A stretch of 64,000 nucleotides of DNA from IMG/VR virus record IMGVR_UViG_3300020157_000004, positions 2,279 to 66,278 of that record. One strand, given 5' to 3'. The notes below the pieces were generated by a model. That model ran no database searches. It had not been told where the DNA came from and saw nothing but the letters and a program-made list of their open reading frames with translations. The position numbers and the translations under genes are program-made. Source of the stretch: a virus. Below, in pieces: positions 9,651 to 57,971 of this stretch (position 1 is its first letter; every line of letters begins with the position of its first letter).

Positions 9651-11669
9651 TTACACCTCCGGGCATTTAGCCCTTCCGCCGATTTGTAAATGAATTGCCG
9701 AGAAGGCGGCTCCGCCACCAGTCCCGTTTACACGAAGCTCGAAGTAAAGATTTCTGGCCTGGAACCACATCGGCCAATTTACAGTGCTGGCCGGGGTTGT
9801 CCCAGCGATTCCAGTCAAAGGACAGGCGAGAGACTTGGGGTTCATGTTCCGCCAAACCACTCCGCACCCGGCTCCCCCACTATTGGAGTCAGCCGCCGTT
9901 GCGGAAACCCCGATCCGAAGGTTCAGGTCATTTGGCGTGGTCTGTGTTTCTGCGTAGAATTCCACGTCGAGCTGCTTGATCTCTTTTATGTCGGAGGGAG
10001 CGCGGAAGGCTATCGGGCCGCTCCGCATTATGCTGCTGTATCCATCTCGACGATAGGCTCCGCACGCTGTAAATGCTGTGCAGAACTCCCTGTAATAAAC
10101 TCCGCCATCCTGCTTCAGGCAGTAATCGGAAGCTGAAGCGAAGACGAGCAATGCGTCCACCGAGCACTCGCGGCATTCCGCCTCCAGATCAAGCGAGTTC
10201 AGGTAGGCGCACAGTTCCCCGTCAGGCGAGGTGTCCCAGTAGTTTTCAATCTCCTGACCACCGCTACCCTCCATCCGCTCCGTAGTGAAACTGCTGGTCG
10301 TGTTTGTGGTGCATCCGGAGGCGGCGGGTGAAACGCAGGGGGTTCCTTCCTTGATTGATGGCGATATAAAATCCGCAAGCAACGCCAGATCAGCTTCCGT
10401 GCAGAAGCACTTGCCAAGCACCTCAACGTCAATGTCCGGCCTTAGATCAGGCGCGTGGTTCAAGGCCGCCGTAAAGCCGAAGTCGATGATGTCTGCGTGC
10501 TGGTATTCAAGGTTGAAGGCAATGGTCCGCTGAGGAAGCGCGGATGAGGTCTCCACCCACGAGACCCGGTATTCCTTGGACGGCTGATGGTAGCAGGCAG
10601 TGTGTCCAAGGCAGGTTGTGAAGCTGATGGTGTTGAATATCTCCGAGCTTCCAAGGTGCATCCACGCAACCCGCTCCGGCTTGGGAAGGAACAGGTTGAA
10701 ATTGTAAACCCCGTCACGGCCCAGGAAGTAATGATCCTGACCGCTGGAGGCAAGTGTGTTTGGAAAAGCGAGGCAAGCCTCACCAGACTCGGGCTGCGAG
10801 TATGCCTGACGGAAGTTGAATACTGATGCCCCTCCAATTACAGATACCTGCCAGATCGACTTGTTGGTGTAGATAAGCAGGTAGTCACCCATCTCCATCA
10901 TCTTGATGATCCGCTCCCCATATCCAAGGTCTTGGAAGCCTGCGATTGAATCATTGGCTGGGGTAAAACTGGTTGGCGCATTCAGGTCGGACCACACCAC
11001 CCGATGTGGGATGGACTGGCCATCCATGATTACGTCTCCGAGAAGAATGATCCCCTTCCATGAGTAGATCGTGGAAGCCCGCGTCAAACCGATTTCAGAA
11101 AGGGAGTCGATGTCCGAAATATCAACCGTGGCGCAACCGGTGTTCGGTTGATCCGGCTGGTCAATCAGCCACTTCTTTGGGGCGTCGTGGTTGTTGGTGA
11201 GAATTACAGCGTCATTGACTTGAGCGCACTCCCATCTTCGCTCCGGGAGACCGGACTGGGCATCACCGCCAAACGAATCGGAGATGAGCTTCCAGTTACC
11301 CTTTGTGAATCGTGAGCAATAAACCCGGTTCTGGGTGGCCGCCAGCAATCGCCGGACTCCGGTTGTTGATACAACCTCGAAGAGGGTTGTGATGGGTTGC
11401 CGGACACCGCTGCCGACGTTCACCGACCCAGTGCAACCTTCGGTTGGGCTGACGATGAGCTGGTCGTGTAAATCCTGATTGTTGTAAATGGCTGCCGACG
11501 GGATCAGTTTTTGAAACCCCTTTCTTCGGCTGGCCTTGCCAGAACTGAGCGCGTCCACGTTCTGACGCCAGCGCCAGCTACCAAATGAAACCTCCGATGG
11601 AAGCGATCTGGTATCGAGTGGCCCTGTCAGCGGGGCCAGTGTGATTGTTTTGACGCATTCGGATGGCAT
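9651..11669 (-). CDS. Tail nozzle / head-closure protein (tail tubular B / P22 gp10-like), Cys-rich
   Basis: 672 aa with beta-propeller-like segments typical of this family (RVVWSDLNAP, YLLIYTNKSIW, YFLGRDGVY); size and position fit. Confidence 0.65.
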   Translation of the reverse strand: MPSECVKTITLAPLTGPLDTRSLPSEVSFGSWRWRQNVDALSSGKASRRKGFQKLIPSAAIYNNQDLHDQLIVSPTEGCTGSVNVGSGVRQPITTLFEVVSTTGVRRLLAATQNRVYCSRFTKGNWKLISDSFGGDAQSGLPERRWECAQVNDAVILTNNHDAPKKWLIDQPDQPNTGCATVDISDIDSLSEIGLTRASTIYSWKGIILLGDVIMDGQSIPHRVVWSDLNAPTSFTPANDSIAGFQDLGYGERIIKMMEMGDYLLIYTNKSIWQVSVIGGASVFNFRQAYSQPESGEACLAFPNTLASSGQDHYFLGRDGVYNFNLFLPKPERVAWMHLGSSEIFNTISFTTCLGHTACYHQPSKEYRVSWVETSSALPQRTIAFNLEYQHADIIDFGFTAALNHAPDLRPDIDVEVLGKCFCTEADLALLADFISPSIKEGTPCVSPAASGCTTNTTSSFTTERMEGSGGQEIENYWDTSPDGELCAYLNSLDLEAECRECSVDALLVFASASDYCLKQDGGVYYREFCTAFTACGAYRRDGYSSIMRSGPIAFRAPSDIKEIKQLDVEFYAETQTTPNDLNLRIGVSATAADSNSGGAGCGVVWRNMNPKSLACPLTGIAGTTPASTVNWPMWFQARNLYFELRVNGTGGGAAFSAIHLQIGGRAKCPEV

Positions 11670-21760: not shown

Positions 21761-23095
21761 TCAGCCGTATAAGGCATCCTGAATCAGTTTTGCGTGATCG
21801 CTTGAATCCTTGCTCACTGCATTTGATGCAGACACTTTTTCGTCTCCCATGCTTGCCGGGTTGGAGCGAGTCTTGGCCTTTACAGCAGGCGTTTCCGTGG
21901 CCTTTACTGTTTTTGAGTTGGGCACGGCTTCCTTTCTTTGCCATCCCATCCTCTCCGCCGCTTCATCGAATGATTTCTTCCGCATTGATACGGCTTCTTG
22001 AAGCTTGTTCTTTCCATCCCTAACAAGAAGTGGACGAACAATCTCCGGGTGAAGCCACACGGTATAATGCCCTTCACGATCCTTCTTGGTCATGGAATTC
22101 CACTGGTCAAGGGTGGCAAACTTTCTGGTCACTCCATCGGCCATCTCCCAGTCCATGCTCTCCGATGAACCGCTCATCTCATCCTCGTAACCTTTGACGC
22201 GAAGAAGCAGCTCTGCGTGCATCGGGTTCTCGTGGTTGCTTCGGAATCTGGTGCGCGGGTCCATCAACTGCTCGGCGGTAGCCATTAGGGCCGCCGTCTC
22301 GTTGGCAACCTCAATTACAGTGTCGGCGGATACCGGGTCTCGCTGCCTGATCTCGTCGATGCTTTTGGCCTTGGGGTCGAACGCCTTCATGATCTCCCTC
22401 GCGCCTTCGACGGCGGCCTGGTTGGCGTTTTTTGAGATTATGGCCTTGTGCTCTTTCTGCATCTGGGCTTCGCGCTCTTTGGCAATGATTCTTGCAGCCC
22501 GATCGGACGCAATCATCTCGGTTTCAGACCGTCGAAACTCCTGACCGTCGATCCATTTCGGTGTGGCTTCGTCGTAGAATTCTTCGTGGTCGGAACTGTC
22601 GCCATCGAAGCTTTCGCCGGGGTTGTCCTTCAGCCATTTCGCGACGTAATCCTGCTCCGCTTTCAGGAACCCCCTGTATTCGGATTCCCGACCGGTTTTA
22701 CCACCGTCCTGCTCCATGAATCTGGCCACACGGAGGTTCTGAAGGTCTTCTTCACTGAGGTCTTTGTCGGGGTCCGGCTTCTGTTTAGTGGAGGCGGCGG
22801 CTTCTTCCTGAGATTTACGGGCCGCTTCATCGGAAGACTTATTTTCAAGAAGCTGGCGAGCAACTTCCTTTGAGATTGCGTCAGCTTTGGCTTTGGCCTC
22901 CTGCCGAGCCTTCTCCTCTTCCTTGGGAGGAACAGTCTTAACGACTTCGGTAGGCTCCGTTGTGACTTTAACCGGATTAACCACCTTCTCAACTGGAGCG
23001 GGATTTTTAATGGAGTCGCCATAGCCAAGTCCATCCATGATGAAGTCGATTGATTCGCTGGCGCTCGGGACAGGGGGTTTAATTTCGTCGGGCAT
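21761..23095 (-). CDS. Scaffolding protein (putative)
   Basis: 444 aa, E/K/A-rich charged coiled-coil protein between portal and capsid. Confidence 0.6.
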   Translation of the reverse strand: MPDEIKPPVPSASESIDFIMDGLGYGDSIKNPAPVEKVVNPVKVTTEPTEVVKTVPPKEEEKARQEAKAKADAISKEVARQLLENKSSDEAARKSQEEAAASTKQKPDPDKDLSEEDLQNLRVARFMEQDGGKTGRESEYRGFLKAEQDYVAKWLKDNPGESFDGDSSDHEEFYDEATPKWIDGQEFRRSETEMIASDRAARIIAKEREAQMQKEHKAIISKNANQAAVEGAREIMKAFDPKAKSIDEIRQRDPVSADTVIEVANETAALMATAEQLMDPRTRFRSNHENPMHAELLLRVKGYEDEMSGSSESMDWEMADGVTRKFATLDQWNSMTKKDREGHYTVWLHPEIVRPLLVRDGKNKLQEAVSMRKKSFDEAAERMGWQRKEAVPNSKTVKATETPAVKAKTRSNPASMGDEKVSASNAVSKDSSDHAKLIQDALYG

Positions 23096-23128
23096 ATTAC
23101 AGTGGATGTTTTGGATCGGTGGGCTGAA

Positions 23129-23503
23129 CTAAGGTTTGAAGCTTAACTTCTGAAAAAGGAGTTCAGCATCCGTTCCGGTTGCGGAGGAGAAGAACTCGAT
23201 CATTTTTATCGCGGTCAGGTATCGGGCCGCCTCGTAACCCTCATCGAGAGAGTCCGACTCGGCTCTGGATTGCCCTTTGCCGAGGAGCATGATGTCTTCA
23301 CAGCGAGCAATGCCGCACGCAGAAGACCTGGCTTGATAATGCGCCGATAGCACACTAAGGAATTCACTCCCTTCAGGCCGGTTTAACCAGTCCTGAATCC
23401 GTTTCACTTTCGGGGGGTCAAGCGGGGAGAGGTTGAGCGATTGCAGCCGGGTCTCCGGCTTGAGGATCGGCTCCGACTGCTGGCTGCTCTGGCTGGTTTC
23501 CAT
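23129..23503 (-). CDS. Small protein downstream of portal
   Basis: ATG lies 86 nt inside the 3' end of the portal gene; start uncertain. Confidence 0.55.
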   Translation of the reverse strand: METSQSSQQSEPILKPETRLQSLNLSPLDPPKVKRIQDWLNRPEGSEFLSVLSAHYQARSSACGIARCEDIMLLGKGQSRAESDSLDEGYEAARYLTAIKMIEFFSSATGTDAELLFQKLSFKP

Positions 23504-25751
23504 CTGTGGCCTGAATAATTGCGATCAGTTTGGCGATGACCTCTTGGTTTTGATGCCCAAGGTCGATTGCCTGCTTAACGCCGTTCACGAGAGGGGCGAT
23601 CATTTTGTCGCTCACCGTCTTCATCAGACCCTCGTTGTTCGCTTCAGTGTTTTTCTCAACGAACTCACGAATCTGCTGAACCAGAGCGGTTAATTCCTGC
23701 TGCTTCCCTGCTTCCTGTTCGGCTTTCTGTTGCTCGGACTGTAATGCCACGGTTCCAGATTTCAAGCGATAGTTGCGCGGAAGACCGGACACCTCTGCCC
23801 ATTGATTGAACAGGGCTACAACCTGATCCGGGCCGACCGCCTGAGAAAGTTCTCCGGCAAGGGGTTGCAGCAAGGTCATCATCTGCTGGGCAATCCCCTG
23901 CTGGTTGGCTCGGTTAGCCCCGTCACGGCTGGCTGCGAAGTATTCGATCGGGATGGTGATCTTGGAGCGCTTGCCATTTACAGCAATGTGCCGGTCAGAT
24001 GTCTCACCTTCTTCAACTAAAAGCCCCATCTTTTTAAGCATCTCAGGAGTCACATTTTGATCCGCTGATACATAGCCGTAAACCTCTTCGCTTCCATGCT
24101 CCGTAGAGTAATTGTATATCTGGCGCTTCCACGCCTCGATCGCGCGATCTATTGCCAGCCCGGTGTATTCCAGCCGCGTGCTGGTGCTGGTTGAAATCAA
24201 ATGCACCTCTTCGGCGCTCTGCTCATGACTTGCTGCTCCACCAGCTTCCTGAGAAGACATCACGAGGCACCGCTCCATGATGTTCATGGCCGCTGTAATG
24301 GCCTGCATCACTGAAGTCGTTTCCCGCTGCGGCAATTGAACCGTGTGCAGAGCTTCGTCGATCCTCACTTGCTGCGCCCGGTTTCGGCGACCACTCATCG
24401 GAACCATGCGAAGTGCATTGAACGAGGTGTCATTGATGTCCTTCAGCGACTCGATGATCTTCTCGTCCACCATGTCGGAATCGTAGAAGGTGAGATTCGC
24501 GAAGTTCTGCCGGACGGAAACAACCATCTGCGTCAGCAGGTTGCTGACCAGGTATTCCCACGGGGCAACCTCCTGGACAAGCGAAGGAGAAATAAGCCGG
24601 GAGTCGTCAGGGTCATAACCCCAGTATGTGATACCGCAGGCGACCAGGGGTTCGCAGTAAATTACAGTCGTGTCGGCGGCGACAAGAAACCTGAACCACA
24701 CCGGATACTCGTAATCTCCGATCCCGTAATCCTTCGGGATTATCTGTTCGTGATGCTCGGTTACAACAACCCCGGCGTCCTCAAATGAGGCGTTGTAGGT
24801 GTTGAGGTTGGCCTGCTCGCGATCCAAGCTGGTAAACTCGGGCGTGAACTGGGCTGGCATCAACGTGCATGGATATACAGTGTTGAAGAAGACATCATTT
24901 GTGGATCGCCAGTCGGAGCCGATCGTTATCCGGTCCACATTCCACAGACTCTTGTTCCCAACAATCTGACGATACGGCATGACTCTCCAATACCCGGCAA
25001 AAACGCACCCGGAATCCGTATTGAAGGTTGAGATCGGATGGGACAGGTCGTAGTAGGTTCTCGAAGGATGGGGCAGCCGGTATCGGATTCCCTCTTTTTC
25101 CAAATCATCACCCTGATGCTGCGAAAACCAACTCTCCTGAACGAACTGGAGCTGGTTTGGATACTGACAGCACTTGAGAATAGCCTGCTGTAATGTGTTC
25201 CTGTAATCGAACCACACACCAACCGTTTCCACGTAATCAGTTATCAGTTCGCACTTGGCGATATTCTGAGGAGTTGTTTTACGGGGTTCATACTTGAACA
25301 ACGGATACTGCATCCGGTCGTTCGTAAGCTTGGCCGCCCTTGTTTTCGTGGTGGCTGCGGCCAAAGGGACAACCACATTCAGAAACCGTGGAAGGTTCAG
25401 AACCTTTTCAACCTTCCCCGTCTTCGGGTCTTTCCGGTCGATCAGCAAGTGGCTCATTGCCCACTCTGTAAGTATCTTCTTGTTTCCTTCCTTGGTGAAG
25501 TCCCGGCCTTGGAGTGATCGCATCAAGGCGGCATCGTGCGATCTAAGCGGCGTCTCCCACAGCAAGTCGATGGCGTGGTAAACCTTATAGTTGTCGAAGT
25601 TGAAAGTTCGACCCTGCATTCCACGACCAAAGATTCGCCTCTTCAACGACTTCAGCTCATCACTCTGATCCTTCTCGTCGGCAGTAAAAAGAGCCTTTAG
25701 TGAATCCTCTGTGATTCCAGCCTTTTCCAAGTCTTTGAGTTTTACAGGCAT
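23418..25751 (-). CDS. Portal protein (putative)
   Basis: 777 aa, first gene of head module; SAEEV (TATE-like) motif and Q/A-rich helical C-terminal barrel as in podovirus portals. Confidence 0.7.
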   Translation of the reverse strand: MPVKLKDLEKAGITEDSLKALFTADEKDQSDELKSLKRRIFGRGMQGRTFNFDNYKVYHAIDLLWETPLRSHDAALMRSLQGRDFTKEGNKKILTEWAMSHLLIDRKDPKTGKVEKVLNLPRFLNVVVPLAAATTKTRAAKLTNDRMQYPLFKYEPRKTTPQNIAKCELITDYVETVGVWFDYRNTLQQAILKCCQYPNQLQFVQESWFSQHQGDDLEKEGIRYRLPHPSRTYYDLSHPISTFNTDSGCVFAGYWRVMPYRQIVGNKSLWNVDRITIGSDWRSTNDVFFNTVYPCTLMPAQFTPEFTSLDREQANLNTYNASFEDAGVVVTEHHEQIIPKDYGIGDYEYPVWFRFLVAADTTVIYCEPLVACGITYWGYDPDDSRLISPSLVQEVAPWEYLVSNLLTQMVVSVRQNFANLTFYDSDMVDEKIIESLKDINDTSFNALRMVPMSGRRNRAQQVRIDEALHTVQLPQRETTSVMQAITAAMNIMERCLVMSSQEAGGAASHEQSAEEVHLISTSTSTRLEYTGLAIDRAIEAWKRQIYNYSTEHGSEEVYGYVSADQNVTPEMLKKMGLLVEEGETSDRHIAVNGKRSKITIPIEYFAASRDGANRANQQGIAQQMMTLLQPLAGELSQAVGPDQVVALFNQWAEVSGLPRNYRLKSGTVALQSEQQKAEQEAGKQQELTALVQQIREFVEKNTEANNEGLMKTVSDKMIAPLVNGVKQAIDLGHQNQEVIAKLIAIIQATDGNQPEQPAVGADPQAGDPAAIAQPLPA

Positions 25752-25756
25752 CTGCG

Positions 25757-26020
25757 TTATTCCTGACTGGTATCCTTCATCACGTCAACCTTCATGATGA
25801 GCGCATTCTCCGCCGCGAGCAGATCGCCGATGGTGATGTGTTTCACGTTGCTAAACCCCGCAATAGCATCAGCGATGGCGGGTTCATGCTCCGCGAGACT
25901 GTTCAGCGTTACAGAAGCCAACCCGGCGTAAGGAATCGGTGCAAGCTGGATCAATGCGCCAACGGTTTTCAGAACGATCTGAAGACCGTTCAGTGGCGGC
26001 TTATCGGTGGGTGAGGACAT
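25757..26020 (-). CDS. Hypothetical protein (possible lysis accessory)
   Basis: 87 aa, overlaps the upstream lipoprotein gene. Confidence 0.5.
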   Translation of the reverse strand: MSSPTDKPPLNGLQIVLKTVGALIQLAPIPYAGLASVTLNSLAEHEPAIADAIAGFSNVKHITIGDLLAAENALIMKVDVMKDTSQE

Positions 26021-26381
26021 TTATAAGTTCTCCTTTCAAGGCTAACAATTCAGCGACGTTGATTTCCGTGATGCCTGAGTTGACGGCTGCCTCGGCAGCT
26101 TTGATGGCGGTTCGATGGGCTGACTGGTAGTCCGAGATAAGAACAGCAACCCGATCCCTTTCAGCCAGCAACGCGGGCGAAGAACCTTCGTTGGTGCGCC
26201 TCTGCTTCCATCCCGCAAGCCACGCTTGATAGGCGGCATTCAAAGCGGCGTCTCCTGTGTTTACGGTTGATAACGCAATGCGGTCAGGAGGCGTCTGGCA
26301 GCCGACCGGAAGGAAAGCCAGCGGGAAGCAGACGAAACACAGTGCAGCGGTGGTGATTAAAAAGCTGTATATCTTTTTCAT
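26001..26381 (-). CDS. Lipoprotein (possible spanin-like)
   Basis: MKK + hydrophobic stretch + lipobox LPVG/C. Confidence 0.65.
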   Translation of the reverse strand: MKKIYSFLITTAALCFVCFPLAFLPVGCQTPPDRIALSTVNTGDAALNAAYQAWLAGWKQRRTNEGSSPALLAERDRVAVLISDYQSAHRTAIKAAEAAVNSGITEINVAELLALKGELINVLTHR

Positions 26382-26474
26382 GGTAACTCTTCCAAATGAA
26401 ATCATTCCACACTGAAAATCATTTTCAATGTTTTTCTTGATTCAAGACGGTTGGTGTGTAATTTTGGAAATAGA

Positions 26475-26566
26475 TATGAACGATAAGCTCAGAGATGGCG
26501 CGACAGAGAGGCGTCCATCTTCACTCGAAACGTAATCGCGCCATTCTCTGAAGCGCATGGTTATAC
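26475..26566 (-). other. Integron attC-like recombination site
   Basis: Minus strand GTATAAC-catgc-GCTTCAGAG-A-ATGGCGCGA...TCGCGCCAT-CTCTGAGC-ttatc-GTTCATA: AAC/GTT cores, 5-nt spacers, L boxes with single extrahelical bases. Confidence 0.7.
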
Positions 26567-26572
26567 CGCATC

Positions 26573-26863
26573 ATGAAAGCAATCGAAAATACAACGCCCG
26601 AAGAACTGCTCAAAGAAGCAGCAACGCAACTCATCACCGAACAGAAGCACGCGGCTGTCGCGCAAATCAAAGACACGCTCAAGCGCGTGGCACAACTCAG
26701 CAACGACATCAAGACCATGCAGCAGGCCGTGGAGAAGAAACAGAAGGAACTCGACGGCGCGAATGGGCGGCTGGAAAAGCTGCGCGCCGGTGACTGGTCT
26801 GTGCTCCAAGACCTGAAGGCCGAAAAGACTGACAAACCGCAAGAGGCGTCCGATGCGGTATAA
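26573..26863 (+). CDS. Coiled-coil hypothetical protein in an apparent gene cassette
   Basis: 96 aa; flanked by the perfect 13-bp inverted repeat GTTATACCGCATC (26560-26572) / GATGCGGTATAAC (26852-26864). Confidence 0.75.
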   Translation: MKAIENTTPEELLKEAATQLITEQKHAAVAQIKDTLKRVAQLSNDIKTMQQAVEKKQKELDGANGRLEKLRAGDWSVLQDLKAEKTDKPQEASDAV

Positions 26864-26968
26864 CGTCCGCATGAGCGAAGGCGCGGACAAGTGACGGTCG
26901 AATTTGCGAGAGGCGTGCGACCTGTGGAATAGACGCGAGCAGCCGAACAATCATTAGGCACACCAAGT

Positions 26969-27352
26969 ATGCAATATCAGGTTGATACTTTCCGGCTGTC
27001 AAAAAATAACCTGCTTACGAAAGCTCAAGTTGAATCAATTCTTGAAACTATCGGAGAAAGGCATCGCGATGTGTTATCAAAGTCTAATCACAAAAAGACT
27101 CTGAAAGAAGCATCTAGGAAAAGCGGGTTGTCAATAAACGCCACTGCTAAAATACTTGGAGCGCATTCATTGAAATTGACCGGCAATAAGATAAGCGTCC
27201 AGGGTTTTAGAAGGTCTCAGCTTTTGCATGATATAGCCGACGGATGCGATTGGGTAAATTTAGAAAGAAAATACGGAGCAAGCATGGTAAGAACTGCTTG
27301 CTACGATTTCGTAAGGCGTTTTTCGCCCAAGGTTATTTCTGACAATTTGTGA
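26969..27352 (+). CDS. AT-rich basic hypothetical protein (possible HTH; moron-like)
   Basis: 127 aa, lower GC than neighbours, TLKEASRKSGLSINATAKIL resembles an HTH. Confidence 0.55.
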   Translation: MQYQVDTFRLSKNNLLTKAQVESILETIGERHRDVLSKSNHKKTLKEASRKSGLSINATAKILGAHSLKLTGNKISVQGFRRSQLLHDIADGCDWVNLERKYGASMVRTACYDFVRRFSPKVISDNL

Positions 27353-27574
27353 CTAAGGCTTCGTGATTGTAGCCGTCTGCGCCTTCAGCGTTTCAATCTC
27401 GGCCTTGAGTGCGGCGTCGGTGTTAGTCCCGAACCAGATCGAGTTGATAATCCCTTTCAATCCGCCTCCGTTGCGGACGGAGTGATAGGCGCGCGTGATG
27501 TAAGGAGAAGCCGCGAGCAGGACCAGCGCAGTCCCGCGATACTTCTCCGGGATGATGTGAATGATGTCGTCCAT
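27353..27574 (-). CDS. Small membrane protein (holin-like candidate)
   Basis: ATG 27574; hydrophobic ALVLLAASPYI segment; lysis-type position. Confidence 0.45.
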   Translation of the reverse strand: MDDIIHIIPEKYRGTALVLLAASPYITRAYHSVRNGGGLKGIINSIWFGTNTDAALKAEIETLKAQTATITKP

Positions 27575-27575
27575 G

Positions 27576-27806
27576 TTATTTCTTCCCCAAGTCACGGATT
27601 AGTTTGCGAACTATCAAAATCGCGCCCGCCACAGCGGCGACGGCACCGGCCCCGTGTGCGATGAACAGGAACACTTCGTCAAACCCGTGGACCCATTGGA
27701 CCAGCATTCCTCCGATTAACATTACCGATCCTCCGATTGCGTCGTTGTGTTCTTGCACTTGTTTCAATGTCTTTCTTGGGTTAGGGATTGGCTGCTTCCT
27801 GCGCAT
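27576..27806 (-). CDS. Small two-TM membrane protein (holin candidate; true start probably internal)
   Basis: Two hydrophobic segments followed by basic RKLIRDLGKK. Confidence 0.45.
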   Translation of the reverse strand: MRRKQPIPNPRKTLKQVQEHNDAIGGSVMLIGGMLVQWVHGFDEVFLFIAHGAGAVAAVAGAILIVRKLIRDLGKK

Positions 27807-28056
27807 CGGCCTGCGCGTGGGCGAAGGTGGAGACCAGGGCGTAAAGCTCCGGCGTCACCACCGTCCCAAGTTGCGCGGCATCCACCTTGACCACCGAACT
27901 CTGGACATTCGTAACCGTGCCGTCCGCATAGCGGGTGACGGTCTCGAACACGAACTCACCGGCCAGTTCCCGCGTCAACGGATGGCCCGTGATGTTGATC
28001 TGCGTCAACTTGCGTTGCGCGGATACGATCTGATTAACTACCAAGTCTTTGGGCAT
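27781..28056 (-). CDS. Tail fibre-associated small protein
   Basis: 91 aa immediately after the tail spike, with upstream AGGAG RBS. Confidence 0.55.
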   Translation of the reverse strand: MPKDLVVNQIVSAQRKLTQINITGHPLTRELAGEFVFETVTRYADGTVTNVQSSVVKVDAAQLGTVVTPELYALVSTFAHAQADAQEAANP

Positions 28057-28071
28057 ATTTTGTTCTCCTGA

Positions 28072-31000
28072 TTAACGGACACGGCGAGCGGTGATGGAAC
28101 CGAAGCCGGTCTCGCCAGTGCCCGTGAAAGTGGGTTTGACAACCAGATAGATTGTCTGCGTCCCGCTACTGTTGAAGATTTTTCGCGGGAGCGTGATTGA
28201 GTTCACAGCGGTCAAGGCGGTCGTTTGCAGACCGCTGTAAACCTCCGAGCCATCGGTCGGCGTGGCAACCGATGTGGACAATCCGGCGACACACGCGGTT
28301 TGCGTGGCTGCTGTGAGATTGAGGTTGACGTTGCCTTCGACATCCCAATCGCCTGCCGGAAGGCTGATGCTGGTGACGGCGGTGGCCGTGGCGTTCGTAA
28401 GGGTCACTGCGCTGGCGGAGGCGATGGCCGAGGACACGACTCGCCCGACATAGCTCGCCGCCGCCGCACTTCCGTCGATGACGCCATAGGTGTCGGTCGG
28501 GACGGACGTGATGATCTTCGAGCCGTTCAGCACCATTTGCGTGGCCGCACTGACAGCGCCGATGGGCGTGACTGAGATGGTCATGTCCGCTCCGCCCGCG
28601 CTGCTGGTGAACCCTTCCCGAGCCGTCAACTGAATGAAGCCCGAGTTGTAGTTGTAGCCCGCTGAGCTGTTATATCCAGCCCCGGTGAGCAAGAAAATCT
28701 TGTCCCCGGTCTGGACGGCGGTTTGTGCTCCAGAGGAGCCTCGGGTGCGTTGGAACAGGATTCCGGCGCTGTTTCCCGACGTGTCCGAATACGACTGGTT
28801 TAGTTGAGCAAATGAAGTCGTGGTGCCGTTGAGGATCAGCGGGTATCCGGTCCCGCTGGCGTTCGCCGTGATCGCGGTGACGTTGGTCGCCGCCGTGACG
28901 GTTTCCGAGGTGGACGTGATACCTGCAAATGCCTGCGTTCCGGTGAAGGTCTGCGCCGCGTCGGTGCGCGCAATCGTGGCCGAGGTCGTAGGGAACGTCA
29001 TCGTGGTCGAATCGGTGCCCGTCAGTGACAGGGTTTTGCTTGCCGTAAATGTTTTGCCTGCCGCAATCGTCAGCGTGCCCGTGCCGGTCGTGATCGTGTT
29101 CCCGTTGACCGTCGCCGCCGTGAGCGCGCCGGTAACTCCGAGAGTGGTCCCCACCGTTGCGGCCCCAGCCAGCGTGGCGGTGCCGCCTACATACAGCGTC
29201 GATGAAATTCCTGTGGTCGTGTTAGTGACTCCTGCGAGGGTTGAAACCCCGGCGACACCTAAAGTCCCTGATAAACTCAGGTTCCCACCCAACGTCGTTT
29301 CCAGACTGGACGACCCGTCGATTGTCACCGGAGTCGTAATGATCGAGCCGAACTGGTTTGGATAGAGTTGCAGGCCGGTCGAAGCCACCGCCTGAATTCC
29401 CACCGCTCCGACAGCCGTAGAATGTCCAGCAGTGATCGAGTTTCCGGTGATGAGATTACTGGACGAGTTTTGCAGATACACCGTCGGAGCCGTAGTCTGG
29501 CCGCTCCAGCCGTTGTCGATCAGCGTGTTTCCAACGACTGAGTTATATCTTCCAGAATTCGGATATGACGCATCCGACATCAACCAGATGGACGAGTTGT
29601 AGTTTTGGTCAAACCGGTTTCCACTCACCAGATTCAACTGGCCGTTCCAGATGTTTACCGACTCGCTGTGACCGGGAGCGAGATACCATCCGGGACTTCC
29701 CGTCGTGGTGATATCAACCCCGGTGCCTTGCATCGCGCCCGGCGAATTGCCGCTCGTCTGGTCCATCCGGGTGCCCAGCTTGAACGTGTCGGCACTGACC
29801 CAAATGACGTAATAGAGCGTGTCCTTAACTAGCGGAGCCGGGAGCGTGCCCGACCCGGTGAACGCCCAGACCGGCTGAAGGTTATAGAGACCGTGATTGG
29901 CAATGGTGAACAGGTCGGTCGCCGCTACGACTGTGCCGGTGATCGCCGCATTGGTCGCCGACGTGTTGTAGATGAAATTGTTCTGGATTAACCCGCCATT
30001 GCCATACCAGAACAGGTTGAGCGGCGTGCCACCGTAATCGCACTCGGTGATCTGCGAGTCCGACTGGCCATTGGCCACGATGCCGTATTTTGCGTAATGG
30101 CTCTTGAGGCGGTGGAACTTGCCGAAGTTCGAGAACACCGTGTAGGCCATCGGCCCGGTCGAATCGAGCGTGAGGTCGGAGAGGTCCACCGCGTTGGCAT
30201 AGGCCACATATACAGGTGCGCCACCGGGCGAGGCGTAAGTATTGAGCGTCAGATTCTTGACGCCCGCCGCCATATACCAGTTGGTGTAGCTGCTGCCGTC
30301 ATTGTAGGAGCTGTTGATGAGAGTCGGAGTCGTGCCCGACAGCTTGCCGTTGATCTCGATCAGGTTGTTGGTCGTGCCCGCAATGGAGACGATGGACGAG
30401 CCGCTGCCCGAGATTCCGCTGCCATATGCCGGAACACCTGAGCCGCCATTGAACGTCACCCCGTATTTGCCTTGAATCGTTCCCGACAAGTAGGTTCCCG
30501 GAGGGAAGAATACCTCGCCACCACCCTTTGATGATACATAGTCTACCGCCGCCTGAATGGCCGTGGTTGAGTCCACCATGTCGGTCTGAATGCTGCTCGC
30601 CAGCGACGCCGCATAGCCCGCCGTGGAGAACGGAACTGCTGCCTGCCCGGCTGATAGAACCGATGTCCAGTAACGGCTGTCCGTGATCGGTCGGGTGAAG
30701 ATTTGCGCGGATGAGGTCAGGCCGAGTTGCAAGTCAACCGCCGAGCCGTAGCCGATGGCGTCCGTCCATGCGGTCGGATTGGTGTCGGAGGCGGCGGTTT
30801 GGACCGACCCGTTGAGATAGACAACGCGGTTGGTTCCCGACCGCGTGAACACCATGCTGTAAGAGGTGCCCGTGGTGAGGCTGACCGCGTAGAGTGCCAA
30901 GCCCGCTCCCGGCTGACCACCCGAGGTGGAACTGCCCCCGGTTGTGCTCCGTAAGAGGGTGCTGATGTAGGTCTGCCCGCCGCCACGATACAGATAGATT

Positions 31001-31506
31001 TCGAGGTTGCGGTTGCCGCCCGTGGCCGGATGGAGCTTGAAGATGCCCTGCGAGCTCAGAACCGTCATGTCGGGCGCGATGAACTGCGCGGCGAGCGAGA
31101 ATGTTCCCGAGCCGGGGTTGATCGGCTGGTTGGTCGTGCTGTTCTCGTAGGGGTATCCGGTCCATGAACCAGAATAAGCGGTCGCACCGAACATTTGTGG
31201 AGTCACCGGCTGTGATGCTAACGGAGGTGTAACCTGCGTCCACGCAAACCGGCTCGCCGGACTGGCAATCAGCGTGGTTGTATTAGTGCCAGTCCAACTC
31301 GCGCCCATGTTCGTGATCGAGTAGTTGGCGTTCACGGACTGAACGAAAACTGTGAGGGTGTAGGAACCGTTCGTGCTCAACGCCCCGTAGCTCCTTGGGT
31401 CCATTGCAGCCAGCGTAGCCAGGGAGGTGGTTGAGCGGGAAGTGTTGATCTCAGTCGTAGCCAACAACGTGGACATGAAAAGAAGAGAGGCTAAGAAGTG
31501 TTTCAT
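28072..31506 (-). CDS. Tail spike / receptor-binding protein with LamG-like and right-handed beta-helix domains; N-terminal signal-peptide-like segment
   Basis: 1144 aa; DSTTAIQAAVD...GGGEVFFPPGTY (pectate-lyase-3 start), N-x-I/V-x-G-N beta-helix repeats, VVYLNG...ITDSRYW (LamG-like), C-terminal SISLPAGDWDV...SITARRVR. Confidence 0.8.
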   Translation of the reverse strand: MKHFLASLLFMSTLLATTEINTSRSTTSLATLAAMDPRSYGALSTNGSYTLTVFVQSVNANYSITNMGASWTGTNTTTLIASPASRFAWTQVTPPLASQPVTPQMFGATAYSGSWTGYPYENSTTNQPINPGSGTFSLAAQFIAPDMTVLSSQGIFKLHPATGGNRNLEIYLYRGGGQTYISTLLRSTTGGSSTSGGQPGAGLALYAVSLTTGTSYSMVFTRSGTNRVVYLNGSVQTAASDTNPTAWTDAIGYGSAVDLQLGLTSSAQIFTRPITDSRYWTSVLSAGQAAVPFSTAGYAASLASSIQTDMVDSTTAIQAAVDYVSSKGGGEVFFPPGTYLSGTIQGKYGVTFNGGSGVPAYGSGISGSGSSIVSIAGTTNNLIEINGKLSGTTPTLINSSYNDGSSYTNWYMAAGVKNLTLNTYASPGGAPVYVAYANAVDLSDLTLDSTGPMAYTVFSNFGKFHRLKSHYAKYGIVANGQSDSQITECDYGGTPLNLFWYGNGGLIQNNFIYNTSATNAAITGTVVAATDLFTIANHGLYNLQPVWAFTGSGTLPAPLVKDTLYYVIWVSADTFKLGTRMDQTSGNSPGAMQGTGVDITTTGSPGWYLAPGHSESVNIWNGQLNLVSGNRFDQNYNSSIWLMSDASYPNSGRYNSVVGNTLIDNGWSGQTTAPTVYLQNSSSNLITGNSITAGHSTAVGAVGIQAVASTGLQLYPNQFGSIITTPVTIDGSSSLETTLGGNLSLSGTLGVAGVSTLAGVTNTTTGISSTLYVGGTATLAGAATVGTTLGVTGALTAATVNGNTITTGTGTLTIAAGKTFTASKTLSLTGTDSTTMTFPTTSATIARTDAAQTFTGTQAFAGITSTSETVTAATNVTAITANASGTGYPLILNGTTTSFAQLNQSYSDTSGNSAGILFQRTRGSSGAQTAVQTGDKIFLLTGAGYNSSAGYNYNSGFIQLTAREGFTSSAGGADMTISVTPIGAVSAATQMVLNGSKIITSVPTDTYGVIDGSAAAASYVGRVVSSAIASASAVTLTNATATAVTSISLPAGDWDVEGNVNLNLTAATQTACVAGLSTSVATPTDGSEVYSGLQTTALTAVNSITLPRKIFNSSGTQTIYLVVKPTFTGTGETGFGSITARRVR

Positions 31507-35956: not shown

Positions 35957-36131
35957 TTCTGGGCCGTTTGTAGCTTGAGAACTCACCAAAGACAAGGACT
36001 CATGCGATCCGAAATGCGCCACCGACATGATACGAAACGGGGATTGAATTCCCCTTGTTATCAATCGTTTATGCCAATGTTAAATACTTTTATTTGCTTC
36101 CGATCAACGATTGGTGCTACTTCTTAAAACC

Positions 36132-37322
36132 ATGAATGAAACATTATTGCCGCCAGTAGAGACCGATTTTGCCCACAAGATACCCGTCCTTCTGCGAGGA
36201 AGGGAAAGTTTTGTGAAAGTTACCGACAGTCGAAAGAGGCCGATCAGGGGTCTTTGGATTCGATCCGACCGTTACTACGCTCAAATGAGCTTGATGGACT
36301 ATACGACCGGAACAAAAAGGGTCCGAAAGGTTCCACTGATGGGGGTCAATACTGTCTCCCAAGCCGTAGTCGCAATGAATCAAATGATTGCGGAACGGCG
36401 TGATGGCAAGCTGGTGGTCTCAAAGGTGCAGCCAACATTCCGGGTGGCTGCCGACCACTACCTTGCTCATGAGCGGTCGATGCACGACGGCAAAAGGGTG
36501 AGCACTCTTCGCGGTGAAGCCAAGTGTCTCAGGTCGTTGGCCAAGTCATTCTCGTCAGAGACAATGGACAAAATCAAACCGCTGGATGTTCGCTCCCACA
36601 TATCCAGACGGCAGAGGATTGATCGGGTCTGTGGCCGGACGGTGAACCACGAGCTAGTGGTATTGGCCAACTTGGTGAAACACTGCCGAATCGAATTTGG
36701 TATGACCAACAACCCGTTGGATGGAGTGGTTGCGCTACCCTACAAATCCGATCGCAGACCCCTTCCAACCACCCTGGAGATACAGACCCTCTGTGACTAC
36801 GCAGTTGCCAACATGATGAATGGTCAGCTTCTTTCCGACTTCGTCCGATTCCTGGCCTCCACCGGCGCAAGACGATCGGAGGCGTTGGTTGTAGCTTGGT
36901 CTGACGTGGACACGGCCATGCGGCGGGTTTGCATCGGTGGATACAGGAAGTCAAAGAACGGACTGGAACGATACGTTGATTTTAATCCAGCCCTTGAATC
37001 ACTGATGGCAGAAATGAAGGCCCGCAAAGACCCGGACTCGCTTTGGCTTTTCCCCACACCAAGGGGAGGGGACATCCCGTCAAGCGGAATGGAAGCAAGC
37101 TTTGCCATTGCCCGCAAAGCCACCAAGCCGGAGCGCATCGTCGGCTGGCATTCAATGCGCCATTATTTCGCCAGCCAGTGCGTCATGGCGGGGATTGATT
37201 TCATGACCATCGCCGCATGGCTTGGCCACCGGGACGGAGGGATTCTTCTCGGCAAAGTTTACGGACACCTGAACGACTCCCACCGTCAGAGCATGGCGGC
37301 GAAGCTGCTTCTTGCCGCATGA
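36132..37322 (+). CDS. int: Tyrosine recombinase / phage integrase
   Basis: STGARRSE (R), KSKN (K), HSMRH (HxxR), LGH, VYGH (Y). Lacks the IntI-specific insertion before patch III. Confidence 0.9.
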   Translation: MNETLLPPVETDFAHKIPVLLRGRESFVKVTDSRKRPIRGLWIRSDRYYAQMSLMDYTTGTKRVRKVPLMGVNTVSQAVVAMNQMIAERRDGKLVVSKVQPTFRVAADHYLAHERSMHDGKRVSTLRGEAKCLRSLAKSFSSETMDKIKPLDVRSHISRRQRIDRVCGRTVNHELVVLANLVKHCRIEFGMTNNPLDGVVALPYKSDRRPLPTTLEIQTLCDYAVANMMNGQLLSDFVRFLASTGARRSEALVVAWSDVDTAMRRVCIGGYRKSKNGLERYVDFNPALESLMAEMKARKDPDSLWLFPTPRGGDIPSSGMEASFAIARKATKPERIVGWHSMRHYFASQCVMAGIDFMTIAAWLGHRDGGILLGKVYGHLNDSHRQSMAAKLLLAA

Positions 37323-42623: not shown

Positions 42624-42930
42624 GACAATTACCCGCCGTTCGCAGCAGCGCATGGTTAGGCCGAGGACGAACAACCTCGCAGCAACCGTCTTTGTATTTG
42701 AAAGCACGCGGAAGCCGTATCAAACACACGTCGTCTATCTCGACCAAGCAAGCTGCTATGTGGATCACCCAGGATGGAAACACACCGCCACGCTTGAACC
42801 CGCAGTGTGGATAGAACACCTGATGAACAATCCCGCTGAACGCGAGAAGCATATCGAAAGCATCTGCTATCGGCCTAACAACAAAGCTCTGCCGCAGGGT
42901 GGGGCGAAGAAAGGCAACGATGAACACTGA
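42610..42930 (+). CDS. Hypothetical protein in apparent gene cassette (both termini encoded by attC-like sequence)
   Basis: Bracketed by the inverted repeat GTTAGGCCGA (42655-42664) / TCGGCCTAAC (42870-42879). Confidence 0.65.
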   Translation: MKPAKTITRRSQQRMVRPRTNNLAATVFVFESTRKPYQTHVVYLDQASCYVDHPGWKHTATLEPAVWIEHLMNNPAEREKHIESICYRPNNKALPQGGAKKGNDEH

Positions 42931-42973
42931 GACTCAATCGCCCCACCCTGTTGGCAGCAGCGCATGGTTAGAC
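42873..42973 (-). other. Integron attC-like recombination site (complete)
   Basis: Minus strand GTCTAAC-catgc-GCTGCTGCCAAC-AGGGTGGGGCGA...TCGCCCCACCCT-GCGGCAGAGC-tttgtt-GTTAGGC; exact RYYYAAC and GTTRRRY cores, extrahelical base in the L box, 101 bp. Confidence 0.8.
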
Positions 42974-52217: not shown

Positions 52218-53687
52218 ATGAGTTCAATCACCGCAGCACCGTCTCCCCTCCAGTCGTGGATCGAAGCTATCTGCTCCGATTTCTCCACCAAACTTCCCGC
52301 CACCGGGGAAGTCTTTCAGGCCATCGAGGCATTCCTTGGCTTCCCCATCGCTGATTATCCCACGGTATCCGTGCCGACCTCCGAGAAGCGCGACAAGCTG
52401 GTGAAGGCAGCGGACGCCGTGAAGAAGCGCGACCTCACATTGATCGGCTGGAAGGTTGGGGCACCGGCACCGGTGCCCACCCGCCGCACGGTGGTTGTCG
52501 CCACACTACCACCGGCTGAACTGCCGGTCTCCACGGGCGACCCGTTGATGGACGCACTGCTGGCCAGGCGGCGGGAGGAAGCGTCGGCTCCGAAGGGGCT
52601 GACTGAAGAGCAGGTCCGAAAGATCGTCAACGAAGTCGTCGGTAAGCTGCCGAAGGCGGTCAACCGGAAGGAGGTGGACGACATTGTATCGTCTGTAATT
52701 GGTTCGATCACTCCGCCCAAGGCACGCATCGACAAGGAGGATGCGGATGAAGTCATCACCGCCTTGCTCGGTGCGAAGTTTGGTGATGTGTTCAGCGGGT
52801 TCGCCATCGGTCGGTCGAAGTCGGACGCAACAACGGTGGAGGCACCCGCCTTGGTGGCAGCCTACACCCCGAAGGTGGACAAGACCTTCGTGATCGACAC
52901 CGACAGCAAGGCGGTGATGAACATGGTGGTGGCCAACGCCAAGAAAAAGGGTGCGGAGAACATCATGCTCACCGGTCCTGCCGGGTGTGGCAAGTCGGAG
53001 TGGGTGGCACAGATGGCGGCTCACGCCGGGCTGCCAATGCTAAAGCTGGATTGCCCCAACATCCGTGAGTCCTCGCAGTGGTTTGGAAGCCGGGGCGCAA
53101 GCAACGGTTCAACCCACTGGACCCGCAGTCAGTTTGAGCTGGCCGTGAGTGGCGGCAACATCGTCATCCTGCTGGATGAGTTCAATCGTGTCAGCGACTA
53201 CGTTCGCAACCCGCTCATGACCTTGCTGGACAACCACCGCTGCACGTTGGTTCAAGAGCTTGGCGCTGTGATTCGGGTCGGCCACAACACGATCTTCGCA
53301 TCGACGATGAACAAAGGTGGCGCCTACACAGGCGTCCACAACGTGGACAAGGCGATGGATGATCGCTTCCCCATATTGCAAGAGCTAACATACCTTCCTG
53401 AAGCGGAGGAGGCCGCACTGCTGGTTGCCCGAACCGGGGTGGCTCTGGCTGACGCCAAGCGGTTGGCGGCTCTGGCCAACGCCATCCGGGCCAAGGCTTC
53501 AAGTCTTGCCGGTGGTATCAGCACCGGCATCGGAACACGGCAGTTGCTCGCCGCGACGGAGGCGTTCCAAGCCATCGGCAAGAACGGCTTGCTCATCACC
53601 ATCGCCAATCATTACACCGCAGAGGGCGGCACCGATTCGGAGCGGGCACAGGTGCGCCTCATGATCGAGGGCAAGTTCCCCCGCTGA
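52218..53687 (+). CDS. MoxR/CbbQ/CobS-like AAA+ ATPase
   Basis: Walker A GPAGCGKS, Walker B ILLDEFNR, STMN, DKAMDDRF, GTRQL. Confidence 0.9.
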   Translation: MSSITAAPSPLQSWIEAICSDFSTKLPATGEVFQAIEAFLGFPIADYPTVSVPTSEKRDKLVKAADAVKKRDLTLIGWKVGAPAPVPTRRTVVVATLPPAELPVSTGDPLMDALLARRREEASAPKGLTEEQVRKIVNEVVGKLPKAVNRKEVDDIVSSVIGSITPPKARIDKEDADEVITALLGAKFGDVFSGFAIGRSKSDATTVEAPALVAAYTPKVDKTFVIDTDSKAVMNMVVANAKKKGAENIMLTGPAGCGKSEWVAQMAAHAGLPMLKLDCPNIRESSQWFGSRGASNGSTHWTRSQFELAVSGGNIVILLDEFNRVSDYVRNPLMTLLDNHRCTLVQELGAVIRVGHNTIFASTMNKGGAYTGVHNVDKAMDDRFPILQELTYLPEAEEAALLVARTGVALADAKRLAALANAIRAKASSLAGGISTGIGTRQLLAATEAFQAIGKNGLLITIANHYTAEGGTDSERAQVRLMIEGKFPR

Positions 53688-57533: not shown

Positions 57534-57971
57534 ATGAGTGAACACAAGACCTGTTCAACCTGCCCGTTCAACCGTTCGGTTGAGCGCGGAGCGTTGGGCG
57601 GAGGAAACGTAATGCAATTCATTGGCCAGGCCAACGGCCCCTTCTACCTGCCCTGTCATGACGTTCCCGGCTACACACCGGAAAACGGAAGGCGCGGGGA
57701 CATGAGGGGCAAGCAGTGCGTCGGGGCTGCAAAGTTCCGGGCCAACCTCGACAAGCAGCAGGACACGGCTGGCATCATGCGGCTGCCCAAAGATACCGAG
57801 ACTGTGTTCGGAACCTTTGCGGAGTTCCTGTCCCATCACGAGAGCGTCGAACTGGAGAAGTGCGAGGCGTTCATGAACAATGTCAAGCCAGACATGATGA
57901 CACAGGTTGAGATGTATCGGGCCGGACGAGGCGGCAGCATCGTGGCAGTCCCGCGAAAGGAGTCGCCATGA
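57534..57971 (+). CDS. Cys/His zinc-binding protein (DUF6283-like)
   Basis: CSTCPF...PCH...CVGA. Confidence 0.55.
   Translation: MSEHKTCSTCPFNRSVERGALGGGNVMQFIGQANGPFYLPCHDVPGYTPENGRRGDMRGKQCVGAAKFRANLDKQQDTAGIMRLPKDTETVFGTFAEFLSHHESVELEKCEAFMNNVKPDMMTQVEMYRAGRGGSIVAVPRKESP

Follow-up and report, generated by a model that had tools for sequence, protein, structure and literature searches.

Sedentary chromosomal integrons, with the Vibrio repeats as the familiar case, hold many cassettes with differing small open reading frames (ORFs) and attC sites that are alike, and the R'' box of a site matches the first bases of its cassette. Comparable features were found in the DNA analyzed here, a 64 kb stretch (the window) of the uncultivated virus record IMGVR_UViG_3300020157_000004, and in other phage contigs with related sites. 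The subject of this work is a 383 bp unit at 26481-26863 of the window. It is probably an integron-type gene cassette with its own attC, beside the truncated attC of a neighbor, the whole being an array fragment lodged between phage late genes. Unlike the Vibrio-type arrays, the present sites are carried by phage-like contigs, and the ORFs run antisense to the top strand of attC; in the record with an integron integrase gene (intI), the ORFs share its direction.

Stem-loop repeats flanking small accessory ORFs are also said to occur in plastic genome regions of T4-type phages. These promoter early stem-loops (PeSLs), reportedly described by Arbiol et al. in 2010, are said to be promoter-terminator repeats shuffled by homologous recombination. 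What sets the present elements apart from PeSLs is their attC geometry, their AAC/GTT cores and an integron integrase (IntI) next to them in one record.

Phage-borne integrons and attC clusters that have no integron integrase (CALINs) are already known, at low frequency. Qi, Rajabal, Ghaly, Tetu and Gillings (2023, Front Microbiol, PMC9892861) reported three complete integrons, one In0 and 17 CALINs in 10,705 NCBI phage genomes. IntI1 recombined five of the six phage attC sites tested. The first-pass annotation of the window, made from its letters alone, had called cassettes rare in phages. Rare is fair, but their occurrence was already in print in that paper. The elements of Qi et al. are like those described here in combining attC-type sites with small cassettes in phages, mostly without IntI, and in showing more than one ORF between sites and GTTRRRY motifs at mosaic boundaries. 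The present family differs in its carriers, which are uncultivated IMG/VR contigs from lakes and other environments, and in that the window locus falls below the rule of two attC sites. Genes on the recombinogenic strand are not mentioned in the main text of Qi et al. (the words "opposite" and "antisense" occur 0 times). What the sequences appear to add to that paper is an attC family common to unrelated uncultivated phages, of which one carries a complete integron of 17 sites, and genes consistently on the recombinogenic strand.

Under the CALIN rule of IntegronFinder, two or more attC sites must share a strand within 4 kb, with no intI needed (PMC4889954). In each of the two loci of the window one site is complete and the other truncated, and 16 kb separate the complete sites. 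The closest label for them is SALIN-like (single attC site lacking an integron integrase). As in SALIN or attG insertions (10.1101/2022.09.11.507474), an isolated cassette with one intact attC lies far from any IntI, with a G|TT-type junction beside unrelated DNA (26481). Unlike in a SALIN, the upstream junction in the window falls at a truncated half attC instead of a genomic GWT site, so what arrived would have been part of an array rather than one inserting circle.

The candidate cassette at 26481-26863

The attC-type site of the cassette, site A, occupies 26474-26566 on the minus strand. It comprises R'' GTATAAC (26566-26560), a 5 nt spacer CATGC, an L'' arm with one extrahelical A, a 32 nt loop, the L' arm, a 6 nt spacer CTTATC and R' GTTCATA (26481-26475). 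The hairpin arms at 26488-26503 and 26536-26553 pair over approximately 16 bp with one bulged base. AAC and GTT are both present, and R'' has one mismatch to RYYYAAC. In the alignments to the covariance models described below, the two spacers and the bulged A fall in the canonical places on the minus strand. As DNA the site folded better than its shuffles, though modestly (z of -2.7 for the plus strand and -2.0 for the minus strand).

A perfect 13 bp inverted repeat, GTTATACCGCATC / GATGCGGTATAAC, surrounds a 96-amino acid ORF encoded on the plus strand (26573-26863). The left arm (26560-26572) is the complement of R'' plus 6 nt and lies directly before the ATG at 26573. The right arm (26852-26864) holds the last codons and the stop TAA (26861-26863), and on the minus strand it is formed by R' GTTATAC of the upstream truncated site and the first bases of the cassette. 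Inverted repeats of 13 bp within 400 nt occurred at three loci in the window (six thirteen-mer matches against a mean of 0.48 per first-order Markov shuffle). At least one was present in 32 of 100 shuffles, so such a repeat is not rare alone. Its weight lies in its position, not in its occurrence. Taken alone, the fold z-scores and the inverted-repeat counts make a weak case.

The cassette is the 383 bp between two G|TT points. Read on the minus strand it holds the ORF in antisense and then site A. GTATAAC, the R'' sequence (26858-26864), and GTTATAC (26560-26566) are exact complements (7/7), and the match extends to 13 bp. Joining the cassette ends gives GTTATAC, the exact complement of R'' GTATAAC. 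The hairpin, the repeat and this complementarity on excision had all been described in the first-pass annotation and were present as described.

The upstream neighbor of the cassette is a truncated attC, site A-prime (26858-26922, minus strand). It keeps part of the loop, L' GTCCGCGCCTTCGCTCAT, the spacer GCGGAC and R' GTTATAC, and its R''-L'' half is gone. The annotation had read it as a half attC in a decayed array, and the comparison with another contig given below agrees with this. A gene remnant with a Lar-like end had also been proposed there. The peptide concerned, RSNLREACDLWNRREQPNNH, is present but matched no Pfam family at E values up to 1, and part of it overlaps the truncated attC. 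The Lar-like label was not supported.

A family of attC-type sites and an integron integrase

The same layout recurs in the window at 42.6-43.0 kb. Site C (42873-42973, minus strand) is better preserved than site A. It has R'' GTCTAAC, spacer CATGC, a stem of approximately 21 bp with bulges, a loop of approximately 30 nt, spacer TTTGTT and R' GTTAGGC. On the plus strand it reads GCCTAAC, 6 nt, stem, loop, GCATG and GTTAGAC, which is the plan of site A. Both boxes fit the consensus perfectly, and the stem has two irregularities and a 13 bp core. Half site B (42638-42662, minus strand) consists of R'' GCCTAAC, spacer CATGC and the L'' half only, and is a 25 nt direct repeat (92%) of the matching part of C. 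ORF X (42652-42930, plus strand) lies between B and C and encodes 92 amino acids beginning MVRP, with no Pfam family. It is set in a perfect 10 bp inverted repeat (42655-64 / 42870-79), arranged as the 13 bp repeat is around the 96-amino acid ORF. The motif AGCGCATGGTTA is found at 26552, 42647 and 42959. In both units of the window R'' is the complement of the preceding R' (GTATAAC/GTTATAC and GCCTAAC/GTTAGGC).

Two covariance models were built for attC. Model R1 was made from 19 attC sites of class-1 arrays on plasmids (R100 and records found through its intI1-attI1 region). Its canonical pairs are 7 bp for R''/R' and, for L''/L', 3 bp, an extrahelical base and 6 bp. The sites of dfrA12 (a control at that stage), OXA-10 and aadA10 (sites not delimited) were left out of training. 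Genuine attC sites outside the final training set scored 31.9 (dfrA17), 38.3 (aadA5), 43.1 (dfrA12) and 62 bits (aadA22). Scans with R1 were run in cmsearch without filters; a search of whole records with a loose first step listed fewer sites. Model R2 is a family model from 18 sites of other contigs, with the sites of the window left out.

The contigs were found by an exact scan of IMG/VR for a 17-mer common to the sites at 42.6-43.0 kb, which returned six. By a rough estimate of our own this number of matches is about that expected by chance, and it was the flanks that showed the same architecture. R1 gave 38.6, 31.0, 17.8, 15.8, 14.4 and lower bits on contig L032, eight matches of 11.8-22.5 bits on L028, 24.4 bits on L029 and about 10-15 bits on L030, with all matches on one strand in each contig. 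Same-strand arrays of 17 sites (L035), 9 sites (L032) and 9 sites (L030) were found, with an integron integrase beside the L035 array.

The best R1 match in the window was site C (20.8 bits, E 0.0024). R2 gave 39.5 bits (E 2e-7) for site A and 49.8 bits (E 7e-10) for site C, with the next match in the window at 18.3 bits. Half site B was not significant when scored with R2 as a whole site (13.3 bits, E 0.31). With both models site A falls on the minus strand, and the extra base in the AAC arm as read there. Across 93 kb of other phage loci all R2 matches were at or below 14 bits except three further sites. In another 152 kb of control DNA the sole R2 match was the genuine aadA1 attC of R100 (50.5 bits, right strand). 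Recognition therefore runs both ways, as R1 finds the family sites and R2 finds a genuine attC. Across the 18 family sites the AAC and GTT triplets are invariant (18/18). Compensatory changes occur in eight of the nine L''/L' pairs and 95% of cells pair, in an alignment that was fitted to the model and so favors pairing. None of 500 shuffles reached this level, and slid registers were 23-35% paired.

Comparison with L032 placed site A and site A-prime directly in this family. Window positions 26861-26922 aligned by blastn to L032 4867-4806 (95% identity over 62 nt), and the counterpart there is a full-length site (L032:4777-4870; R1 14.4 bits, R2 57.5 bits). The aligned block is the loop, L', spacer and R' of that site, that is its 3' half, and identity ends at GTTA| (26861). 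A second block, window 26485-26582 against L032 5584-5488 (82% identity over 98 nt), is site A and corresponds to the last site of the L032 array. Its identity ends at ..CGTT| (about 26481-26485). The two sequences share attC parts only. Between the blocks the window has 278 nt with the 96-amino acid ORF, and L032 has 620 nt with another full attC (R1 38.6 bits) and other ORFs. Homology thus ends at the GTT cores, as the cassette reading in the annotation had predicted of relatives, with L032 the one relative available to compare. These boundaries come from the blastn blocks and direct reading, as a global MAFFT alignment misplaced the first block. Site A belongs to a family of sequence-related attC sites that stands in arrays of several otherwise unrelated uncultivated phage contigs. 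The L032 cassette beside the homolog of site A encodes a small signal-peptide protein on the opposite strand. It is unrelated in sequence to the ORF adjoining site A in the window (26001-26383, minus strand), which begins MKKIYSFLITTAALCFVCFPLAFLPVGC and by eye, with no tool applied, resembles a lipoprotein signal.

The integron integrase was found in record G001 (66,085 bp, CheckV completeness 100%). Its integron spans L035:3479-14398 (G001:49478-60397), with intI at L035:13442-14398. The integrase matched TIGR02249 over its full length with 312.4 bits (cut-off 265), and the XerC and XerD models gave about 107 bits. A GTTAGGC core lies 33 nt before the intI start codon, and R'' of the first site, GCCTAAC, is exactly complementary to it. 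The 17 attC-type sites extend away from intI, on the strand opposite to it. This is the canonical geometry of an integron and independently confirms the strand called by the models. G001 has a weak portal match and helicases, and has only a DnaB-like gene in common with the window. Two further family sites lie at L039:10772-10833 and 11274-11379 (plus strand; R2 36.5 and 44.9 bits), within G001:1-15000. They adjoin a helicase gene, well away from the main G001 array and on the strand opposite to it.

A crossover at G|TT means that R'' should match the R' ahead of its cassette and not the R' of its own site. In the L035, L032 and L030 arrays R'' was complementary at 7/7 positions to the previous R' in 18 of 31 cassettes and to its own R' in 4. 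Some of the misses are imprecise match ends or skipped sites.

Gene orientation, cargo and surroundings

Classical cassettes are oriented the other way from the one described here and depend on the promoter Pc. On the minus strand site A has the extra base on the AAC arm and spacers of 5 and then 6 nt, which is the top-strand pattern. Under the strand rule for attC (PMC5027507), the recombinogenic bottom strand is therefore the plus strand, on which the genes lie. The annotation had put the attC on the minus strand and the gene on the plus strand, the reverse of the classical arrangement, and this was borne out. A crude count of longest ORFs put the longer ORF of 24 of the 31 family cassettes on the bottom strand. 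In G001 the bottom-strand cassette ORFs are co-directional with intI, and cassette genes and integrase could be one transcription unit. No description of arrays with genes on the recombinogenic strand was found in the literature searched.

The cargo of the cassette is a real gene product. The 96-amino acid protein has 14 homologs with 70-96% identity and conservative substitutions. In its AlphaFold2 model (mean pLDDT, the predicted local distance difference test score, of 82) a single long helix spans residues 9-71, with a short helix and a disordered tail besides. In Pfam and PHROGs it gave sub-threshold coiled-coil matches only, and in Atlas its scores were at most 0.83 (all under 0.9). No relatives were found in viral contigs, and those in genome contigs were only two 25-residue chance matches in Planktomarina metagenome-assembled genomes. 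The gene also occurs in two JGI metagenome contigs (L007:553-798 and L008:2155-2400), 25 nt after a 415-amino acid Ala/Pro-rich ORF, and the following ORF overlaps the gene. Neither the hairpin nor the inverted repeat is present there, so the gene and its flanks have separate histories. The same small gene exists as cassette cargo and as an ordinary phage gene.

Upstream of the gene in the window lies the motif ATG GTT AKA CCx (26557-26575). It is in frame in one homolog, which begins MVRPHI-MKAIENT, and is out of frame by 2 nt in the window. In other homologs (among P0003, P0001, P0026 and P0028) the N-terminal extensions are quite unlike this one, and back-translation of one of them gives a GC-rich palindrome-like stretch. 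Such extensions imply different upstream DNA in which TTATAC yet appears to be kept; this was read from proteins alone and was not used as evidence. There are hints that different attC sites may precede the same 96-amino acid gene.

The window is part of a linear 66,278 bp record with a CheckV completeness of 83%, and identical sequence is present in three lake-water metagenome runs. The cassette locus lies inside a run of late genes on the minus strand. This run includes a tail-fiber protein gene (28072-31506; phrog_11393, E 1.6e-19) and the gene of a 777-amino acid protein, which is common to other viral contigs and for which no family match in Pfam or PHROGs provided a name. Two plus strand ORFs break the run. 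One is the cassette ORF (26573-26863), and the other (26969-27352, 127 amino acids) adjoins the truncated site. Together they form a plus strand island in the minus strand run. The 127-amino acid product had no Pfam or PHROGs family and no relative among the fetched loci. No match to GenBank phages was found by blastn or tblastn, and no Rfam family was found over 25500-28200. Promoter and terminator scans gave counts near those expected from shuffles and were not used as evidence, including promoter-like sites at 27002-26973 and 26428-26401 (minus strand).

Other repeats and sites were observed away from the two loci. A 47 nt hairpin, GTTCAAC...GTTGGGC, at 57553-57599 (plus strand, opposite to A and C) scored 18.3 bits with R2 (E 0.02) and is found where ORF 57534-57971 begins. 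The longest of the close inverted repeats in the window, a perfect 16 bp repeat (52753-52768 / 52905-52920, 136 nt between arms), lies within a 489-amino acid ORF (52218-53687). A single family site (L006:2057-2160, minus strand; R2 25.4 bits, E 6e-4 / 1.2e-3) is present in a distant relative of this phage with 34% identity in the 777-amino acid protein.

Interpretation, alternatives and significance

By the established attC mechanism, the plus strand of the window would be the recombinogenic bottom strand and would fold into the hairpin when single-stranded. IntI would cut within the AAC triplet, which is G|TT on the opposite strand, and strand exchange would take place with attI, another attC or a genomic site. 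The genes of the family lie on the recombinogenic strand, and the attC, seen from the gene, is upstream of the start codon. The genes would therefore be read from promoters of the phage or of the array itself and not from a Pc-type promoter. The upstream junction of the window fragment is inside an attC loop, which argues that the fragment did not arrive as a single circle inserting at a genomic site. The tyrosine recombinase of the window (36111-37322) is not an IntI, as the annotation had recognized (TIGR02249 24.9-30.2 bits against the cut-off of 265). With no IntI in the record an IntI of the host or some other IntI would have to act, a host IntI having been foreseen there. Since the partner site has in addition lost its R''-L'' half, excision of the 383 bp circle is unlikely now. 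The cassette is probably the fossil of an array, at most half-active. Site A alone might still recombine with attI.

A wider reading is possible and is put forward tentatively, at less than even confidence. It is that a phage-borne integron system crosses lineages. Some phages would have their own IntI and long arrays, such as the 17 sites of G001, with genes on the recombinogenic strand read toward intI as one operon. Cassettes of the shared family would move between unrelated phages, and the loci of the window would be products of that traffic.

Several observations count against reading 26481-26863 as an integron-type cassette. R' of site A, GTTCATA, departs from GTTRRRY at three of the four degenerate positions, and the site has one extrahelical base rather than two or three. 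The gene is antisense to the attC top strand, unlike in most cassettes, where the ORF is on the top strand. R1 gave site A only 8.0 bits (E 6.9, rank 10 in the whole window), which is noise, although its coordinates and minus strand were those of the annotation. The L032 homolog of site A was also below the R1 listing threshold. The proposal of the annotation that an attC model would recognize the site thus failed with the class-1 model and held with the family model, while other family members reached 31-38.6 bits with R1. Both models are home-made and neither is the IntegronFinder model. R2 was trained on matches selected with R1, in contigs found through a 17-mer from sites B and C, so the score of C is partly circular and the shape of R1 is carried into R2. 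In L007 and L008 (78% identity) the 96-amino acid gene stands in an ordinary co-directional operon without attC. IntI was found in one of the five related records searched, most of which are incomplete (CheckV 17-83%) and several of which are fragments. None was found in the 66 kb record of the window itself, also incomplete (83%), where the best TIGR02249 matches were those of 24.9-30.2 bits. The closest relatives found (L002-L004; 68% identity in the 777-amino acid protein) have co-directional genes throughout the corresponding stretch, none related to those of the window, and are too divergent there to define an empty site. The three lake-water runs were identical over 23000-31000, with no variant, indel, joint, empty site or circle junction. 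These runs were compared as contigs, from which rare forms are dropped, and one is possibly the source of the record, so the comparison is evidence in neither direction.

The hairpins could instead be regulatory or boundary elements of phages, stem-loops with a gene-start motif (GCGCATGGTTAGRCC, ATG GTT AGR CC, giving MVRP) that are shuffled by homologous recombination with no IntI. A conserved motif of 12-25 nt does stand directly upstream of or over the plus strand start codons at 26552, 42647 and 42959, and it is in frame in the homolog beginning MVRPHI-MKAIENT. The genes also keep one direction relative to the hairpins (the longer ORF on that strand in 24/31 cassettes), and the record of the window has no IntI. 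This explanation is nevertheless improbable, given the exact attC geometry with AAC and GTT invariant in all 18 sites and the recognition of family members, up to 38.6 bits, by a model that had seen class-1 sites only. The family model in turn found a genuine attC and nothing else in 152 kb, and one array starts 33 nt from a true intI. The preference of R'' for the previous R' (18/31) over its own (4/31) is predicted by crossover at G|TT and not by homologous recombination between repeats.

Folded attC-like substrates of another recombinase, either a phage tyrosine integrase or a host Xer-type enzyme, would make the likeness to integrons convergent or ancestral. Classical attC sites have G as the extrahelical base nearest the R box, and in the sites read by eye here it is C on the bottom strand. 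The window does encode a tyrosine recombinase of XerC/XerD-like similarity (61.5 bits), and IntI was missing from four of the five related records and from the record of the window. Against this, a bona fide IntI is found in the only record whose layout is complete, and its position there is that of canonical integrons. Absence of IntI from mostly incomplete records is weak evidence, and CALINs without IntI are common for real attC sites (PMC4889954; preprint 10.1101/2022.09.11.507474). Action of another recombinase is very unlikely. Chance, with an ordinary 5'-leader or terminator-like stem beside a coincidental 13 bp repeat, would fit the modest fold z-scores (-2.7 and -2.0), the 32 of 100 shuffled windows with at least one such repeat, and the noise-level R1 score of site A. 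It does not fit the R2 E value of 2e-7 for that site, its 82% identity to an array member in an unrelated contig (95% for its neighbor) or the recurrence of the layout at 42.6-43.0 kb, and it is all but refuted. An integron-type cassette beside a truncated neighboring attC remains the preferred reading. The observation of the first-pass annotation was in this way confirmed and its interpretation supported.

Integrons are known as bacterial gene-capture platforms, and here a cassette lies in the structural-gene region of an uncultivated phage. The family model offers a means to scan viromes for further sites of this kind. Were IntI to act on these sites, they would be a natural test of uncoupling the choice of attC strand from gene orientation. 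If the phage-borne system is true, it would be a supply of small accessory genes, perhaps for counter-defense or superinfection exclusion. Action of IntI on these sites would also mean that phages carry and use cassettes, which would give genes a way to pass from phage to phage and from host to host.

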